From an uncultured Pseudomonadota bacterium (GTDB lineage: Bacteria; SAR324; NAC60-12), in NCBI GenBank assembly GCA_913020725.1, contig CAJWCD010000044.1, forward strand, positions 1 to 23,823: a stretch of 23,823 nucleotides of DNA, written 5' to 3'. The position numbers and the translations under genes are program-made. Below, in pieces: positions 1-15,946 of this stretch. Numbering within the stretch: the first letter of the stretch is position 1; each line of letters starts with the position of its first letter. Under the pieces are notes generated by a model. That model had not been told where the DNA came from and ran no database searches. It saw nothing but the letters and a program-made list of their open reading frames with translations.

Positions 1-2
1 CC

Positions 3-215
3 CCGACCCTCTTCGTCTCACACGAGAACGGTCCCTACAACCCGATCGCCGACGCCGCGAGCCGCACCAAGACGGCGGAGCTCAACGCGCTCATGCAGCA
101 CATGGGGCTCAAGGCGCAGATGGTGAACGTCACGCCGCAGATGGAGAAGATCATGAGCGACACGGTTGCCATGTGGCGCTCGATGGGCGCCCCCGCGCGC
201 GCCGAGGCGGCGGTG
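3..215 (+). CDS. Partial unidentified coding fragment, open from the window edge, probably of foreign (possibly eukaryotic) origin
   Basis: Frame +3 reads PTLFVSHENGPYNPIADAASRTKTAELNALMQHMGLKAQMVNVTPQMEKIMSDTVAMWRSMGAP with most codons ending in G/C. The frame formally continues to a stop at 389, but that part is antisense to the EGF/GPS frame. No family recognised; 3' end approximate. Confidence 0.3.
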
Positions 216-223
216 GGTGTGCT

Positions 224-763
224 TCACGCGTTTGCCGACGCCGCCGCGGCCTTCGTTGGTGGAGAGGTTGGTGCAGAGGTGTCTGTGCGCTGTGCGAGCA
301 GCTTGTGCCAGAGTGGCATGAAGCCCACCTGCAGCGCCCGCTCATCGCGGCGGTGCATGGCGAGGAGCGCGGCAAGCATCGCCAGATAGACGGCGACAAC
401 GAGCGACCAGCCGGCGGCGCCGAGGCTGCGCAACACGTCAGCCAGCTCGGACCACGAGGCGAAGGGCGTCGTGAGCTTGAGGTCACTCAGATCGAACGAG
501 AGCGTGCTGCTGCTGCCCTCGAGGAGCGCCGTCTTGGCGAAGGTGGAGAAGGACGTGAGGTGCGTGCAGCCGCACGTGACGGAGCCGGCCGCGCCGTCCT
601 TGGGGGAAATCTCCGAGACGATCTCGCAGCCGTCGGTCGCCCACGCCCCTTGGTCCTCGGAGTAGTAACGGCACTCGAACTGTGCGTTGCACTCGGGGCC
701 GAGCCAGCCATCGTCACAGGCGCAGCTGCCGTCGTTACAGGCGCCGTGGCCAGAGCAGGGAGC
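224..763 (-). CDS. C-terminal fragment of a eukaryote-type membrane protein: EGF-like repeat + GPS/GAIN autoproteolysis motif + single TM helix (adhesion-GPCR/polycystin-1-like architecture)
   Basis: Manual translation upstream of the track ORF 224..436 (same frame, no stop until 827-829): [25 protein letters not shown] (EGF-like, 757-689), [47 protein letters not shown] (GPS, 673-548, H-L|T at 562-554), then hydrophobic [21 protein letters not shown] followed by HRR, TGA at 226-224. No ATG upstream of the domains. Confidence 0.8.
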
Positions 764-1544
764 CTCGATGGCCGCGCACGTGCGGGCGATGGTCGGCTTC
801 CAGGACGCCGGCGCCGAGGTCTTCGACTACGGCAACTCGATCCGCGACGAGGCCCGCAAAGCCGGCTACGACCGCGCCCTCGAGTTCCCGGGCTTCGTCC
901 CGGCCTACATCCGCCCGCTGTTCTGCCGCGGGATCGGCCCGTTCCGCTGGGCCGCGCTGTCGGGCGATCCGGAAGACATCTACAAGACCGACGCCAAGGT
1001 GAAGGAACTGCTGCCCGACAACCATGCCTTGCACAACTGGCTCGACATGGCCCGCGAGCGTATTTCCTTCCAAGGTCTGCCCGCACGGATCTGCTGGGTG
1101 GGTCTGGGTGTGCGCCACAAGCTCGGTCTCGCCTTCAACGAGATGGTCCGCACTGGCGAGCTAAGCGCGCCCATCGTGATCGGGCGCGACCACCTCGACA
1201 GCGGCTCCGTCGCCTCGCCCAACCGCGAGACGGAGGCGATGAAAGACGGCTCCGATGCTGTTTCGGATTGGCCTTTGTTGAATGCGCTGCTCAACTGCGC
1301 GTCCGGAGCCACTTGGGTCAGCTTCCACCACGGGGGCGGTGTGGGCATCGGCTTCAGTCAGCACGCCGGGTTGGTGATCTGCTGCGATGGCACTCCGGAG
1401 GCCACCAAGCGCATCGAGCGTGTGCTGTGGAACGATCCCGCGACCAGTGTGATGCGTCATGCCGATGCGGGTTACGACATCGCCCTTGACTGTGCCCGTG
1501 AACAAGGTTTAAACCTTCCGGGCATTCTTGGCAACGAACCCTAA
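762..1544 (+). CDS. hutU: Urocanate hydratase (urocanase), C-terminal ~260 aa only; 5' half missing
   Basis: Motifs [19 protein letters not shown], urocanase signature [44 protein letters not shown]. Similarity starts at ASMAAHV (762); track residues 687-761 are antisense of the EGF region. Full-length HutU is about 550 aa. Confidence 0.93.
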
Positions 1545-1654: not shown

Positions 1655-2797
1655 ATGAAACTCAAACAAACCCTTTCCTTCATCACAGCTTTGACTCTGA
1701 CCGTCGGAGTTGCCTGGGCCGATACCGTAAAAATCGGCTTCAACGTACCCCTGACCGGCTTTGCCGCTGCCGATGGGGAATCCGCCCTGACCGGAGCAAA
1801 ACTGGCCGTGAAGCAAGCCAACGCCGCAGGCGGCATCAATGGCAAGCAGATCGAACTAGTGGTTTATGACGACCAAGCCTCTCCCAAAGAAGCGCTCCCA
1901 ATCGCTAACCGTCTCATCGAGAAGGACGGGGTGAAAGTCGCTGTTTCCGGCAGCTACTCCGGTTCCACTCGTGCAGCCGCAGGTGTGTTCCAAGCCGCAA
2001 ACATCCCCTACATTTCGGCCTACGCCGTCCACCCGGACATCACTCGCAGTGGAAAGTACGTGTTCCGCACCTCCTTCATGGGAGAAGTTCAGGGACGCGC
2101 CGGAGCCTTGTTGATTGGGCAAACCATGCAACACAAGCGCGTGGTTATGATCACGCTCAAAAACGATTTCGGGAAGTCACTGGCGGCAGGTTTTAAGGCC
2201 GAGGCTGCAAATTACGGAATCGAGATCATCAACGAGTACGAGTACTCGATCCGTGATCGGCAGTTCGGTTCGATTGTTGCCAAGGTTCGCTCTGATCAAC
2301 CGGACGCCATTTATGCTTCCGGTTACTTCTTCACCGCCGGCCCCTTGGTCAGACAGCTTCGCTCCGGAGGTGTGGCCGCCCCAGTGATTGGGCAGGAAGG
2401 CTATGATGGCGAGCAGTTCATCAAAATTGCCGGCCCTGCCGCCGAAGGGGTGCTGATCACCACCTCCCTTGATCGTGATTCCACCGATTCCGAAGCACGC
2501 GCCTTCATCACAGAGTACGAGAAATTCTCCGGAAACAAGGTGGACATGGTTTCGGCTTCCACCCACACCGCCATCAATGTCGTGGTTGCTGCACTGCGCA
2601 TGGCCGGAACCAGCAACCCGGATGCAATCCGCGATGCTATCTCCAAGACCAGCCTCAAGGCCGCTACGGGGCATATTTCCTTCAATCAACTTGGAGAAGT
2701 TCGCAAGAACGTTCAGGTCCAGATTGTGCGAGGGGGCGACTGGCACTACCACTCTGAAATCAGGGATCGAGTCCTGTTGGCTCCCCCCGAGTCCTGA
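1655..2797 (+). CDS. ABC transporter substrate-binding protein, branched-chain amino acid (LivJ/LivK, HAAT) family
   Basis: Signal peptide (MKLKQTLSFITALTLTVGVAWA), KIGFNVPLTG, NAAGGINGKQIELVVYDD, NDFG motifs; GGAG upstream; first of a 5-gene ABC cluster. Confidence 0.9.
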   Translation: MKLKQTLSFITALTLTVGVAWADTVKIGFNVPLTGFAAADGESALTGAKLAVKQANAAGGINGKQIELVVYDDQASPKEALPIANRLIEKDGVKVAVSGSYSGSTRAAAGVFQAANIPYISAYAVHPDITRSGKYVFRTSFMGEVQGRAGALLIGQTMQHKRVVMITLKNDFGKSLAAGFKAEAANYGIEIINEYEYSIRDRQFGSIVAKVRSDQPDAIYASGYFFTAGPLVRQLRSGGVAAPVIGQEGYDGEQFIKIAGPAAEGVLITTSLDRDSTDSEARAFITEYEKFSGNKVDMVSASTHTAINVVVAALRMAGTSNPDAIRDAISKTSLKAATGHISFNQLGEVRKNVQVQIVRGGDWHYHSEIRDRVLLAPPES

Positions 2798-5357: not shown

Positions 5358-6051
5358 GAAACTATCCTGTGGCTATGGGCCACTCACGGTGGTGCATGAA
5401 ATAGATATGATCGTAAAAGAGGGTACTATTCACGCCCTCATTGGAGCAAATGGAGCAGGAAAAACCACAGCCTTGATGACGATTGCGGGGCATGTGGAGG
5501 TCAAATCCGGGAGTATCCGGATGGGAGTCGAGCGGCTGGATCAGGTACCCACGAAAGAGCGAGTGCAACGTGGGGTTGCGCTAGTACCGGAGGGCCGCCG
5601 CTTGTTCCCAGATTTGACGGTGCGGGAAAATCTGGAGGTTGGCGGTTACTCACGACCTAAAGCTCGAATACCACAAAACCTCGACCGTGTGTTATCCCTG
5701 TTTCCACGACTGGCGGAGCGACTGGGTCAGCAGTCCGGATCCCTGTCGGGGGGCGAACAGCAAATGTTGGCCATTGGTCGGGGGTTGATGGCCGAGCCCA
5801 AGCTATTGCTGCTCGATGAACTCTCGCTCGGACTCATGCCTCGGATGGTCGAAGATTGCTACGCTGCACTTCAGCAACTCCGTAGCGAAGGCATGACCCT
5901 GTTGCTGGTGGAACAAAACACCCGTCAGGCACTCGCCGTGGCCGATGAGGTTTGTGTGTTGGAATCTGGAAGTGTGGCGTGGCGTGGCACCGCCGAGCAG
6001 GCCCGTCAAGACACCGGAATTATCGAAGCCTATATCGGCTTGCGGCGTTGA
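5344..6051 (+). CDS. livF: ABC transporter ATP-binding protein (LivF-like)
   Basis: Walker A GANGAGKT, VPEGRRLF, signature LSGGEQQMLAIGR, LLLDELSLGL, VEQN. Confidence 0.9.
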   Translation: MLTIEKLSCGYGPLTVVHEIDMIVKEGTIHALIGANGAGKTTALMTIAGHVEVKSGSIRMGVERLDQVPTKERVQRGVALVPEGRRLFPDLTVRENLEVGGYSRPKARIPQNLDRVLSLFPRLAERLGQQSGSLSGGEQQMLAIGRGLMAEPKLLLLDELSLGLMPRMVEDCYAALQQLRSEGMTLLLVEQNTRQALAVADEVCVLESGSVAWRGTAEQARQDTGIIEAYIGLRR

Positions 6052-6184
6052 CCAAGATCTGCTCAGGATGTCTTTTCAAAACTGGATTATTTCAGGAAGG
6101 ATGATGGAATTTGAGTAGCCAGCAGTTCTCGGTCTTTCGAGTTCGACAACCTAAACTCAGACTTGCTGAAAAAGTTTCAGAATT

Positions 6185-13312: not shown

Positions 13313-14086
13313 TCAACTCACACGCGCCAGTCCAATGGCCCGTTCGTTCAATTTGTCAATGTTGCTCAAAGCCCGCTGCACCCCTTCATACGCCCGTTGG
13401 GCGCTGATCATGCGGGTCATTTCCAAGACGCTGTTGACGTTTGAATCCTCCAAACTGCCTTGCAGCACTCCGACCTCGTCGGCGGGAATCGGCACATCGT
13501 CACTGCGGATTGGCGCAAAGAAGGTCTGTCCTAGTTTCTGGAGGTTTTCGGGATGCCGGAAGCGCACGAGCCGCAGCCGGTCGATGATCTCGCCATCCAC
13601 CTTCACTTGTCCGTCCACACCCACGGTGAAATCGTTGCCCGTGACAAGGATCGGCCCTTTTTCGCCCATCACCGGAAAGCCATCGTGCGTGACGAGGCGT
13701 CCATTACCCTCAAGCTGGAAGTTCCCGGCGCGGGTGAAGCGGTCGCCTTGGGGAGTGGCAATGGTGAAAAAACCTTCGTTCTCAAGCGCCAAGTCCAGTT
13801 TGCTTCCGGTGTTGCGGAAGCGTCCAATCGTGAAATCTTTCCCAATCTCGTCCACGACCACGGCAGATTTGTCCATGCCGACATACTGGTCGAGGTACTC
13901 ATGGGAGAGGAACGATTCCTCGTCGGATTCCGGCGCCACGCGCTGAGCGGCGGAAAGCACTTCCCTGAAGACGGGCTGGTCGCCCTTGTAACCCACGGTG
14001 CTGACGTTGGCGAGGTTGTTGGCCACCGTCTCCATTTGCCGCTCCACAACTCCGGCGGCCTGCACCAAACTAACAATTCCTGTCAT
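13313..14086 (-). CDS. flgF: Flagellar basal-body rod protein FlgF
   Basis: Start reassigned to ATG 14086 with GAAGGAG RBS; ANNLANVSTVGYK, FTRAGNF, LEDSNVN...MISAQRAYE; lies upstream of flgG. Confidence 0.88.
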   Translation of the reverse strand: MTGIVSLVQAAGVVERQMETVANNLANVSTVGYKGDQPVFREVLSAAQRVAPESDEESFLSHEYLDQYVGMDKSAVVVDEIGKDFTIGRFRNTGSKLDLALENEGFFTIATPQGDRFTRAGNFQLEGNGRLVTHDGFPVMGEKGPILVTGNDFTVGVDGQVKVDGEIIDRLRLVRFRHPENLQKLGQTFFAPIRSDDVPIPADEVGVLQGSLEDSNVNSVLEMTRMISAQRAYEGVQRALSNIDKLNERAIGLARVS

Positions 14087-14129
14087 ATCTCCTTCCACAA
14101 GTGGAGGTTTTGTAACTGGCCGGAATCTA

Positions 14130-14145
14130 AGCAAGCAACATACCA
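14130..14145 (-). promoter_or_regulatory. sigma54 (-24/-12) promoter of the flgFGAH operon
   Basis: Minus strand TGGTATGTTGCTTGCT = TGG-N8-TTGCT with exact GG-N10-GC spacing, 43 nt upstream of the flgF ATG. Confidence 0.65.
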
Positions 14146-14203
14146 CTCCCGCTTGGCCTCCCTGAGCCGACCAGCGGATTCTGCTCCCGGAGTTTCGCCA
14201 ACG

Positions 14204-14220
14204 TGCTTAAATTCTGAGCA
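14204..14220. promoter_or_regulatory. NtrC-like enhancer dyad
   Basis: TGCTTAAATTCTGAGCA: 17-bp TGC-N11-GCA dyad with AT-rich centre, centred about 106 nt upstream of the predicted glnA sigma54 start. Confidence 0.45.
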
Positions 14221-14291
14221 GCTGGCTAAAACATGGGCGATCTTCCTGAAGGAATTTTTTATTTTATTGAACAATTTCAGATAGTTGAAAT

Positions 14292-14308
14292 TGGCAAAGA
14301 AATTGCCA
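14292..14308 (+). promoter_or_regulatory. sigma54 (-24/-12) promoter of glnA
   Basis: TGGCAAAGAAATTGC, exact GG-N10-GC spacing, preceded by an AT-rich tract with an IHF-like sequence (14278-14290). The element is also a dyad (TGGCA-N7-TGCCA). Confidence 0.65.
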
Positions 14309-14321
14309 TAGAAAGAGAATG

Positions 14322-14376
14322 CAGGAGTCAGGAGTCAGCATGAGTGATCCTGACTCCTGGATACTAACTCCTGAAT
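14322..14376. repeat. Heptamer tandem repeats arranged as an inverted pair (STRR-like hairpin)
   Basis: CAGGAGT CAGGAGT CAG... then CCTGACT CCTGGAT ACTAACT CCTGAAT. CAGGAGTCAGG (14322-14332) is the exact reverse complement of CCTGACTCCTG (14349-14359). Confidence 0.7.
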
Positions 14377-14536
14377 GCTTCTCCCGTCGAGAGCGACCTC
14401 CCATGCATTGCTTGACGCAGCAAGTTGCGGGGAATCAGTTCCGAAAGAGATTTAGTGTTGGGCCTGCCTCCGGGCACACGCCAAACTACCGGACTCGCGG
14501 GTCCGGCCTTCTTCAACTCGATTTGTAAAACTTGCT

Positions 14537-15946
14537 ATGGCCACGGTCAACGACGTCATCAAACTCGCCAAGGACAACGAGGTGGTCACGGTGGACCTCA
14601 AGTTCATCGACTTCCTCGGCACTTGGCAGCACATCATGTTCTCCATGTCCGACTTCGGCGAGGACCTGCTGGAAAACGGTCGCATGTTCGACGGCTCCAG
14701 CATCCGCTGCTGGCAGACGATCGACGCTAGTGACATGAAGGTGGTTCCGGATCTCTCCACCGCCAAGCTCGACCCCTTCTTCGCTCAGCCGACGCTCTCG
14801 CTGATCTGTGACATCGTGGACCCCGTCACGGGCGAAGGCTACAACCGCGACCCGCGCAGCGTTGCCAAGAAAGCCGAAAAGTACCTCGCCTCCACTGGGA
14901 TTGGCGACACCGCCTTCTTTGGTCCGGAAGCGGAGTTTTTCATTTTTGACGACGTGCAGTACTCCTACGGTTCTGACGGAGGATTTTTCTCGATTGACTC
15001 GGAAGAGTGCCCGTGGAACACCGGAGCGGATGAGCATCCGAACCTCGGCTACAAGACGATGCCGAAGCTGGGTTATTTCCCGACCGCACCCTTCGACACC
15101 CAGAGCGACCTGCGCGTTGAGATGGTGATGATGATGGAACAGATGGGCATTGAAGTGGAGCGCCACCACCATGAGGTGGCCCCGGCCCAGCATGAAATCA
15201 ACTTCAAGTTCAGCACGCTGGTCGAGACGGCGGACAACCTCCAGTGGTACAAGTACATCATCCGCAACATCGCCCGCGCCAACGGCAAGACGGCGACCTT
15301 CATGCCCAAGCCGATGTTCAACGACAATGGTTCTGGAATGCACACCCACCAGTCGCTTTGGCAGAACGGCAAACCCCTCTTCTCCGGAGACCAGTACGGC
15401 GGGCTGAGTGAGACCGCGATGTACTACATCGGCGGCATCCTCAAACACGCTCCGGCGCTGGGCGCACTCATCAATCCGACCACCAACTCCTACAAGCGGC
15501 TCGTTCCGGGCTTTGAGGCGCCGATCAACCTCGCCTACTCCGCCCGCAACCGTTCCGCCTGTGTGCGGATTCCGGTCGCAGATTCGCCCAAGGCCCGCCG
15601 CCTCGAATTCCGCTGTCCGGACGCCACCGCCAACGCCTACCTCGCGTTCTCCGCGATGCTGATGGCCGGACTCGACGGCATCCAGAACAAGATTCATCCC
15701 GGCGACCCGATGGACGTGAACATCTACGACCTCTCGCCGGAGGAGTTGAACAAGGTGGGCCAGATGCCGCGCAACCTCACCGAAGCGCTAGAGGCGTTGC
15801 AAGCTGACAACGAATTTCTGCTCAAGGGTGATGTCTTCACCAAGGATGTCATTGATTACTGGGTGGACTACAAGGTTGAAGAGGAGATCAAACAAGTCGA
15901 TTCCCGCACCCATCCACACGAGTTCACGCTGTACTTCGGGTACTGA
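14537..15946 (+). CDS. glnA: Glutamine synthetase type I (GSI-beta)
   Basis: 469 aa; [56 protein letters not shown]; adenylylation Tyr in NIYDL. Confidence 0.98.

Follow-up and report, generated by a model that had tools for sequence, protein, structure and literature searches.

A eukaryote-type receptor fragment at the tip of a bacterial contig

The window, i.e. the whole stretch of 23,823 nucleotides analysed here, is the start of contig C44 from a bacterial metagenome-assembled genome (MAG; assembly G000, 3.45 Mb in 204 contigs, 56.7% GC), and its first 1,000 bases reach ~68% GC against this assembly-wide value. On the minus strand of this tip, a frame is open from position 826 to a TGA at 224-226 (200 aa), and the 70-codon ORF from which the preliminary description started, beginning at a GTG that is V116 of the 185-aa reading, does continue upstream as proposed there. 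Features of the window are listed below, with the runs (X) and proteins (P) that support them.

1-213, plus strand: foreign piece A, an unassigned ORF (3-213) of a GC-rich contig, exact in long contigs of X1, X5, X3, X6 and X11
193-255, no strand assigned: foreign piece B, source of the false stop at 224-226, known from separate contigs that diverge on both sides
234-782, minus strand: internal fragment of a eukaryotic, likely haptophyte, REJ-GAIN(EGF insert)-GPS multi-transmembrane gene (identity to P0026, independent contigs)
356-412, minus strand: first transmembrane helix (TM1; hydropathy peak 2.16, helix also in the structural model)
548-673, minus strand: GPS motif, the last GAIN strands (PF01825, 29.3 bits against a cut-off of 22.5)
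554-562, minus strand: HLT of the GPS (H-L|T-S-F at 562-548)
686-757, minus strand: EGF-like module (Pfam PF23106, EGF_Teneurin, E 2.4e-9; PF07974, EGF_2, E 3.1e-6; both above cut-off)
762-782: 21-nt word at the chimeric join, minus strand in the algal gene (TCAAIEA) and plus strand in actinobacterial hutU (ASMAAHV), from contig ends and hutU loci
762-960, plus strand: Nocardioides-type urocanate hydratase (hutU) piece (identity to 80 loci, GC3 0.98)
961-1175, plus strand: further non-host hutU piece or pieces (an X13 contig is exact at 969-1057; host contigs of X1, X2 and X13 differ synonymously before 1176)
1176-1544, plus strand: 3' end of the host hutU, the first host DNA of C44 (continuous with 1655 onward in X1 and X2 contigs; Urocanase_C; identity of 0.78-0.98 to the same-genus genome G001 over 1200-1550)
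1655-2797, plus strand: host ABC-transporter substrate-binding protein, downstream of hutU (PF13458; same order in G001, locus L002)

The call of an EGF module, a GPS and a TM helix made from the letters alone was borne out by profile searches, in which both EGF families and the GPS family exceeded their cut-offs, and the HLT is present. The conserved cysteines, the tryptophan and the H-L|T/S site stand directly before TM1, as is characteristic of GAIN/GPS proteins (PF01825, HLTSF, then TM). The coordinates also agree with the short spacer noted before, with 5 residues separating the last EGF cysteine from the first GPS cysteine, and one TM helix is found before the stop. Upstream of 782, the open frame is the antisense of actinobacterial hutU and foreign to the receptor gene.

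The first 1,175 bases are a chain of unrelated pieces

Up to position 1175, the window strings together five or more unrelated DNA pieces through exact overlaps of 21-22 nt. The window was compared with Logan contigs of eight sequencing runs, as distinct from raw reads of the source assembly, and the results below refer to the matching pieces listed. X1 is the best holder of window pieces and may be the source sample. Contigs diverge from the window at 213, 255, 234, 782, 762 and 1176, and among the contigs listed none bridges a join or shows the fragment in physical continuity with host DNA.

At the upstream join, contigs of X3, X5, X6, X11 and X14 (five of the eight runs, from five studies) depart from the window at 782. 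All of them carry an identical stretch of 30 letters beyond it, and the sequence there encodes the P0026 helix located ahead of the EGF. Presence in X14, an RNA library, does not by itself show transcription. Over 292-782, contigs of X3, X5, X6 and X14 match with 9 differences. From the other side, a 29-nt pattern (765-793) occurs at 81 places in bacterial genomes, nearly all of them Nocardioides-type actinobacteria. Over the 80 of these that have flanking sequence, identity to the window averages 0.26 over 662-761, 0.96 over 762-782, 0.91 over 783-860, 0.87 over 861-920 and 0.79 over 921-960, then falls to ~0.6. The match is exact from 762 in 36 of these 80 loci and extends further left in none, and one X13 contig is exact over 762-827 and preceded by 140 other bases. 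Since hutU matches start at 762 and receptor contigs end at 782, the algal gene and the actinobacterial hutU share exactly 21 nt.

Piece B overlaps piece A by 21 nt (193-213) and the receptor gene by 22 nt (234-255), with loose ends at both joins in 4-5 runs. Contigs carrying piece A continue with a different sequence after 213 (loose ends recorded for X1, X3, X6 and X11), and no Pfam match was obtained in this piece. In X1 and X11, a 169-bp record spans 234-383, and its letters before 234 extend a poly-Ala run, as in the homologous contig L011 and protein P0004. Position 224 is a C in X11, giving the minus-strand codon TGG instead of a stop. Because the TGA at 224-226 lies inside an unrelated middle piece, the short tail after the TM helix is not real, and the single-TM form is an artefact of assembly. 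The earlier remark that only one TM precedes the stop hence stands for the letters of the window and fails for the gene, for which ~6 TM segments are predicted after the GPS in the parent protein P0026.

Twenty-one is the default smallest k of both MEGAHIT and metaSPAdes. The chain was likely built at the smallest-k step of a de Bruijn assembler; the joins themselves are observed, and the assembler's behaviour is what we infer from them. The assembler would have strayed from the host path within hutU, a widely conserved gene, continued through the hutU of other organisms and crossed over to the algal gene at the 21-mer 762-782. It would then have left this gene within a GC-rich poly-Ala repeat, creating the false stop.

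The k-mer comparison suggested in the preliminary description pointed to the same tip, as C44:1-550 and 276-825 were the top two of 12,222 scored segments when ranked by an algal-versus-host 3rd-order Markov score. The TCCGGA signature of the host occurs 0 times in 1-782 against ~1.7 expected, which is not significant. Decoupling of coverage was considered as evidence and dropped, as missing cover proves nothing. The depths, which we did not count as evidence, are 10-57x for the algal piece in X3, X5, X6, X11 and X14, where host cover from 1176 is lacking, and 22x for the host in X13, where the algal piece is lacking. Piece A, very deep in X3 (313x) and with Atlas look-alikes scoring 0.93-0.94, differs in depth pattern from the algal piece (313 vs 13 in X3).

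The host locus appears split between two contigs

Contigs of X1, X2 and X13 match the window from 1176 and carry a different, synonymous hutU sequence before that position. In G001, a genome of the same genus, the hutG-hutU-ABC transporter locus is intact, and hutG and the 5' part of hutU of G000 are found on contig C91, 85% identical to G001 up to position 14059 and 0.56-0.78 thereafter. From their sequences, C44 and C91 look like the two halves of one host locus, each continued with a foreign hutU in a reciprocal chimera. On C91, positions 14060-15242 (L103) hold the 3' end of a foreign hutU and, after it, a gene of lower GC for a solute-binding protein.

After the two C44 segments, the next most alga-like segment in the Markov ranking was the tip of contig C108. 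This foreign GC-rich tip (C108:1-643, L102) cuts a TRAP permease gene at ~644 that is intact in G001, and by eye it carries what we take to be a C-terminal sorting-type domain. Among 88 genomes of the phylum, a GPS was found in two, G000 and G007 (contig C651), and in neither of the two same-genus genomes searched. The G007 match is likely animal contamination: C651:5820-5915 (L100) lies on a short contig of 39% GC and consists of stop-interrupted, animal-type adhesion-GPCR-like exons.

Chimeric ends of short-read metagenome contigs typically share these traits, namely overlaps of about the minimum k, a break in a conserved gene and a foreign tip. The present case differs in that 1.2 kb hold at least five sources and C91 took part in a reciprocal swap, and it is unusually well resolved. 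The G000 hutU (C44 and C91) and the C108 tip are unfit for use as host sequence, and the case shows that a MAG with 0.59% reported contamination can hold chimeric tips that look like eukaryote-to-bacterium transfer and contain spurious stop codons.

The parent gene and its probable source

The fragment could be traced to P0026, a protein of 2,306 aa (7 cluster members) that shares 160 of 163 residues with the translation of window 292-781. A search of longer proteins recovered REJ+EGF+GPS proteins of 1,315-3,210 aa; a REJ module lies upstream of the GAIN in P0026 (PF02010, E 2.3e-46) and also in P0002-P0004. After the GPS, P0026 has six hydropathy peaks and family members have 3-6, and in P0027 only ~35 residues separate TM1 from the next TM; C-termini are possibly incomplete, as genomic ORFs read into introns.

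The homologous contigs L010 and L011 have 66% GC. In L010, a 147-nt GT-AG intron (5934-6080) interrupts sequence that is continuous in P0027, and L012 contains an 88-nt GT-AG intron (521-608) within the TM1 region; the gene family is therefore nuclear-eukaryotic. Both introns and one in L011 (after ~7120) consist largely of (CATGCA)n or CCCTAA/CCCTAG repeats, and prokaryotic gene callers run through such repeat introns, leaving HMHMHM and PNPNP tails in database proteins. We also considered the (CATGCA)n and CCCTAA repeats as a mark of Phaeocystis, which was not established, the portion of PMC12480563 consulted stating only that its genomes are rich in simple repeats.

Of 23 clusters looked up for named relatives, four carried an organism name, Prymnesium polylepis twice and Pavlovales CCMP2436 and Plasmodiophora brassicae once each. 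In a quick tree of 32 rows (2 of 34 having been dropped for a missing motif), the parent falls in a supported clade of environmental sequences, and no named member of this clade was found by cluster look-ups, a shorter-length search or the tree. Judging from relatives at ~27% identity, the source of 234-782 is likely a haptophyte alga, and we keep to "likely" because the parent's clade is without a named member. An Atlas look-alike of the algal piece (best score 0.83) is a lead only.

Two near-identical copies of the gene are present, the window tail being found in X1 and X11 (where position 292 is bridged) and the P0026 tail in X3, X5, X6 and X14. The copies are ~98% identical over EGF-GPS-TM1 and split abruptly after TM1 (window 292, minus strand) into an L011-type and an L010-type cytoplasmic tail, which suggests recombination between paralogues. 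Upstream of the REJ, L011 (49-2793) shows an apparent signal peptide, Cys-rich and Pro-rich stretches and, by eye, a C-type-lectin-like segment, for which Pfam gave no support.

The EGF module is predicted to lie inside the GAIN domain

The 670-aa GAIN-to-TM1 region of L010, an 80%-identical homologue, was used as query against 1.84 billion representatives and yielded 106 matches. By regular expression, 41 of these had a GPS head and 39 had head and tail. An EGF directly precedes the GPS in 31 of the 39 GPS-bearing matches, a share biased upward because the query itself contains an EGF; the EGF-GPS spacer is 5 residues in 30 of 41 and 7 in 2 of 41. In nine matches no EGF was detected, several of them being N-terminally cut, three (P0079, P0109, P0120) being ordinary GAIN domains and one (P0051) carrying the hairpin only. 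Between a V-x-NL-x-x-PI-x-I strand and the first GPS cysteine, the insert measures 62-171 aa in the seven proteins with both borders found, and aligns as either an EGF alone or a Cys-patterned helical hairpin followed by an EGF.

An AlphaFold model of the L010 homologue (42 sequences, pLDDT 72, pTM 0.60) places the elements of the region in the following order (residues of the region):

3-209: helices
216-353: strands
367-484: helices
489-510: EGF
516-567: GPS strands, then the TM helix

The EGF is modelled at pLDDT ~90, and the helical part of the insert has low alignment depth and a pLDDT of 44-69 in places. The best ten Foldseek matches are all GAIN structures of adhesion GPCRs, and VIA-align gave BAI3 a Z of 21.1 and an rmsd of 5.6 with 294 residues aligned over 51-568. 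The L010 homologue is thus predicted to contain both subdomain A and subdomain B with its GPS strands, of which the window itself holds only the last strands. In this model, the EGF and the preceding helical hairpin would be embedded in GAIN subdomain B, immediately ahead of the GPS strands, which supports the suggestion in the preliminary description that the EGF is inserted in a GAIN domain. The missing rest of the GAIN lies upstream of the insert and is cut off at the 762-782 join.

Overall, the protein would consist of a PKD/REJ ectodomain followed by a complete GAIN, from which a Cys-stapled helical hairpin and an EGF would protrude as a loop after the last pre-GPS strand and ahead of the GPS strands. 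From family knowledge drawn from sections of PMC3321182, it would cleave itself at H-L|T by the N-O acyl shift of GAIN domains, with the two halves staying bound. Some six TM segments and a large cytoplasmic region, in which no PLAT or channel domain was detected, would follow the GPS. Such a protein may act as a cell-surface adhesion molecule or as a mechano- or ligand sensor, the EGF arm possibly offering a binding or clamping surface beside the cleavage site.

Two axonemal doublet-microtubule chains, 8glv_AE and 9fqr_Hn, also align to the GAIN model over residues ~50-568 (Z of 13.2 and 12.6), and this likeness may reflect either a chance similarity of helical-plus-beta arrangements or a fold related to GAIN.

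Alternative explanations

Taken together, these observations indicate that the bacterial location and the single-TM form of 234-782 are almost certainly assembly artefacts. A real horizontal transfer, in which a fragment of the algal gene entered the bacterial chromosome (or that of a subpopulation) beside hutU, would agree with the fragment being physically on C44 of a bacterial MAG with so little reported contamination (0.59%), and with X1 and X2 holding the host plus some foreign pieces. We nevertheless consider such a transfer exceedingly improbable: it would take at least four insertions, each ending in an exact 21-22-nt overlap, and would destroy hutU, whose other half is on C91. Moreover, start codon and signal peptide are both absent, no contig among those listed bridges any join, and a GPS is absent from the same-genus genomes searched. 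The near-identical match and the lack of bridging contigs among those listed argue against a bacterial location. Co-assembly of GC-rich protist or algal DNA, which the preliminary description had preferred to transfer, is upheld by the near-identical long REJ-GPS protein, the spliceosomal introns in homologues and the divergence of contigs at the joins. A search of viral_contigs found no relative. Giant viruses carry captured host membrane proteins, and a giant virus or other mobile element with a captured GPS protein as the source would be in keeping with this habit, with a marine origin and with the high GC. This origin is still highly improbable, given the result in viral_contigs, the simple-repeat-containing spliceosomal introns of homologous loci and the fact that the named relatives are cellular eukaryotes.

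Accepting the chimera as an artefact, one may still read the EGF-GPS unit as a truncated "mini-GAIN", i.e. a stand-alone GPS behind an EGF, with neither a folded GAIN nor cleavage. No Pfam GAIN family matches these proteins, and the rmsd of the model to GAIN structures is 3.4-7 A, both of which would fit this reading. We find it unlikely, however, as a helical subdomain A and a beta subdomain B are predicted upstream of the insert, structural alignments cross the insert and run from residue ~50 to ~568, the same flanking strands recur in members whose insert is shorter (62 aa) or lacking, and the HLT is kept in 34 of 39 GPS-bearing matches. The reading we retain is that the gene behind the fragment encodes a variant of the REJ-GAIN receptors already known, its subdomain B carrying an EGF or hairpin-EGF insert, with cleavage and function presumed from the family.

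Comparison with known GAIN and REJ receptors

According to the sections of Arac et al. (PMC3321182) used here, cleavage requires the entire GAIN domain, to which the GPS belongs, and GAIN domains are present in Tetrahymena and Dictyostelium. The GAIN domains of the adhesion GPCRs BAI3 (4dlo), BAI2 (8oek) and latrophilin (4dlq) share the fold predicted for the algal family (Z 18-21), with the four GPS cysteines, the tryptophan and H-L|T in common. Unlike these receptors, the algal family combines a REJ ectodomain with a large insert absent from those structures, and no secretin-like 7TM (7tm_2) was detected after the GPS in any long member.

Sea urchin SpREJ proteins, as described in the part of PMC1934368 consulted, contain a REJ, a GPS and 1-11 TM, and SpREJ1 has an EGF. 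Polycystin-1 and SpREJ share with the algal family the order of a REJ, then a GAIN/GPS directly before TM1, then more TM, and differ from it in the position of the EGF, which is predicted to lie inside the GAIN in the algal family and is a separate ectodomain in polycystin-1/SpREJ, as far as that part of the source goes. No PLAT/LH2 was found after TM1 in 10 long members (E 0.05), this domain being usual, not universal, among SpREJ. The 11 TM and the TRP-like channel module, which several SpREJ lack, were likewise not found: 3-6 hydropathy peaks follow the GPS, and the same 10 members gave no PKD_channel match. A motif similar to H..W.S.F..TR.QR, a motif of the TM2-TM3 region of PC1, is kept in P0026, P0027, P0032 and P0118, and PDB searches with the region after TM1 returned no polycystin match. 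Because the PLAT and 11-TM comparisons failed and the ectodomain resembles PKD1/SpREJ, we describe the algal family as PKD1-like, and not as polycystin-1.

Models of PKD1-type GAIN domains contain an extra beta-sandwich between S9 and S10, according to the portion of Seufert et al. (PMC11697300) considered here. On that basis, both families would loop a module out of subdomain B right before the GPS-bearing strand, the algal one being an EGF with or without a Cys-stapled helical hairpin and the PKD1-type one a beta-sandwich. The algal insert site is apparently that of the PKD1 beta-sandwich, judging from the placement of GPR56 C346/W349 in S10 in the same portion of that paper.

A literature search found no paper describing haptophyte REJ/GPS proteins or an EGF within a GAIN, and the main text of the Phaeocystales genome paper makes no mention of polycystin, REJ or PKD. 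A survey of GAIN, ZU5 and Nup98 by Liao and co-workers from 2014 may already mention such insertions. The database entries P0181 and P0118 show this domain order, so the REJ-GAIN(EGF)-GPS layout is annotated and apparently undescribed. On balance, we favour the view that an expanded and undescribed REJ-GAIN family exists in haptophytes and in one or more rhizarians, the pre-GPS loop serving as a modular socket for an EGF that either stands alone or sits at the foot of a disulfide-stapled coiled-coil arm. Counting the animal PKD1 beta-sandwich at the same place, there would be three GAIN topologies, suggesting an ancient site where ligand or force controls cleavage and release of the tethered strand. 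If the insertion is true, a small protist GAIN with an EGF arm would be a tractable model for how the polycystin-1 insert affects cleavage, and REJ-GAIN receptors would extend to bloom-forming algae. In the rhizarian Plasmodiophora brassicae, P0118 and P0185 show the same REJ-GAIN(EGF)-GPS layout; the long form adds laminin-G-like repeats, and between TM1 and TM2, where PKD1 has its PLAT, there is a beta-rich stretch.
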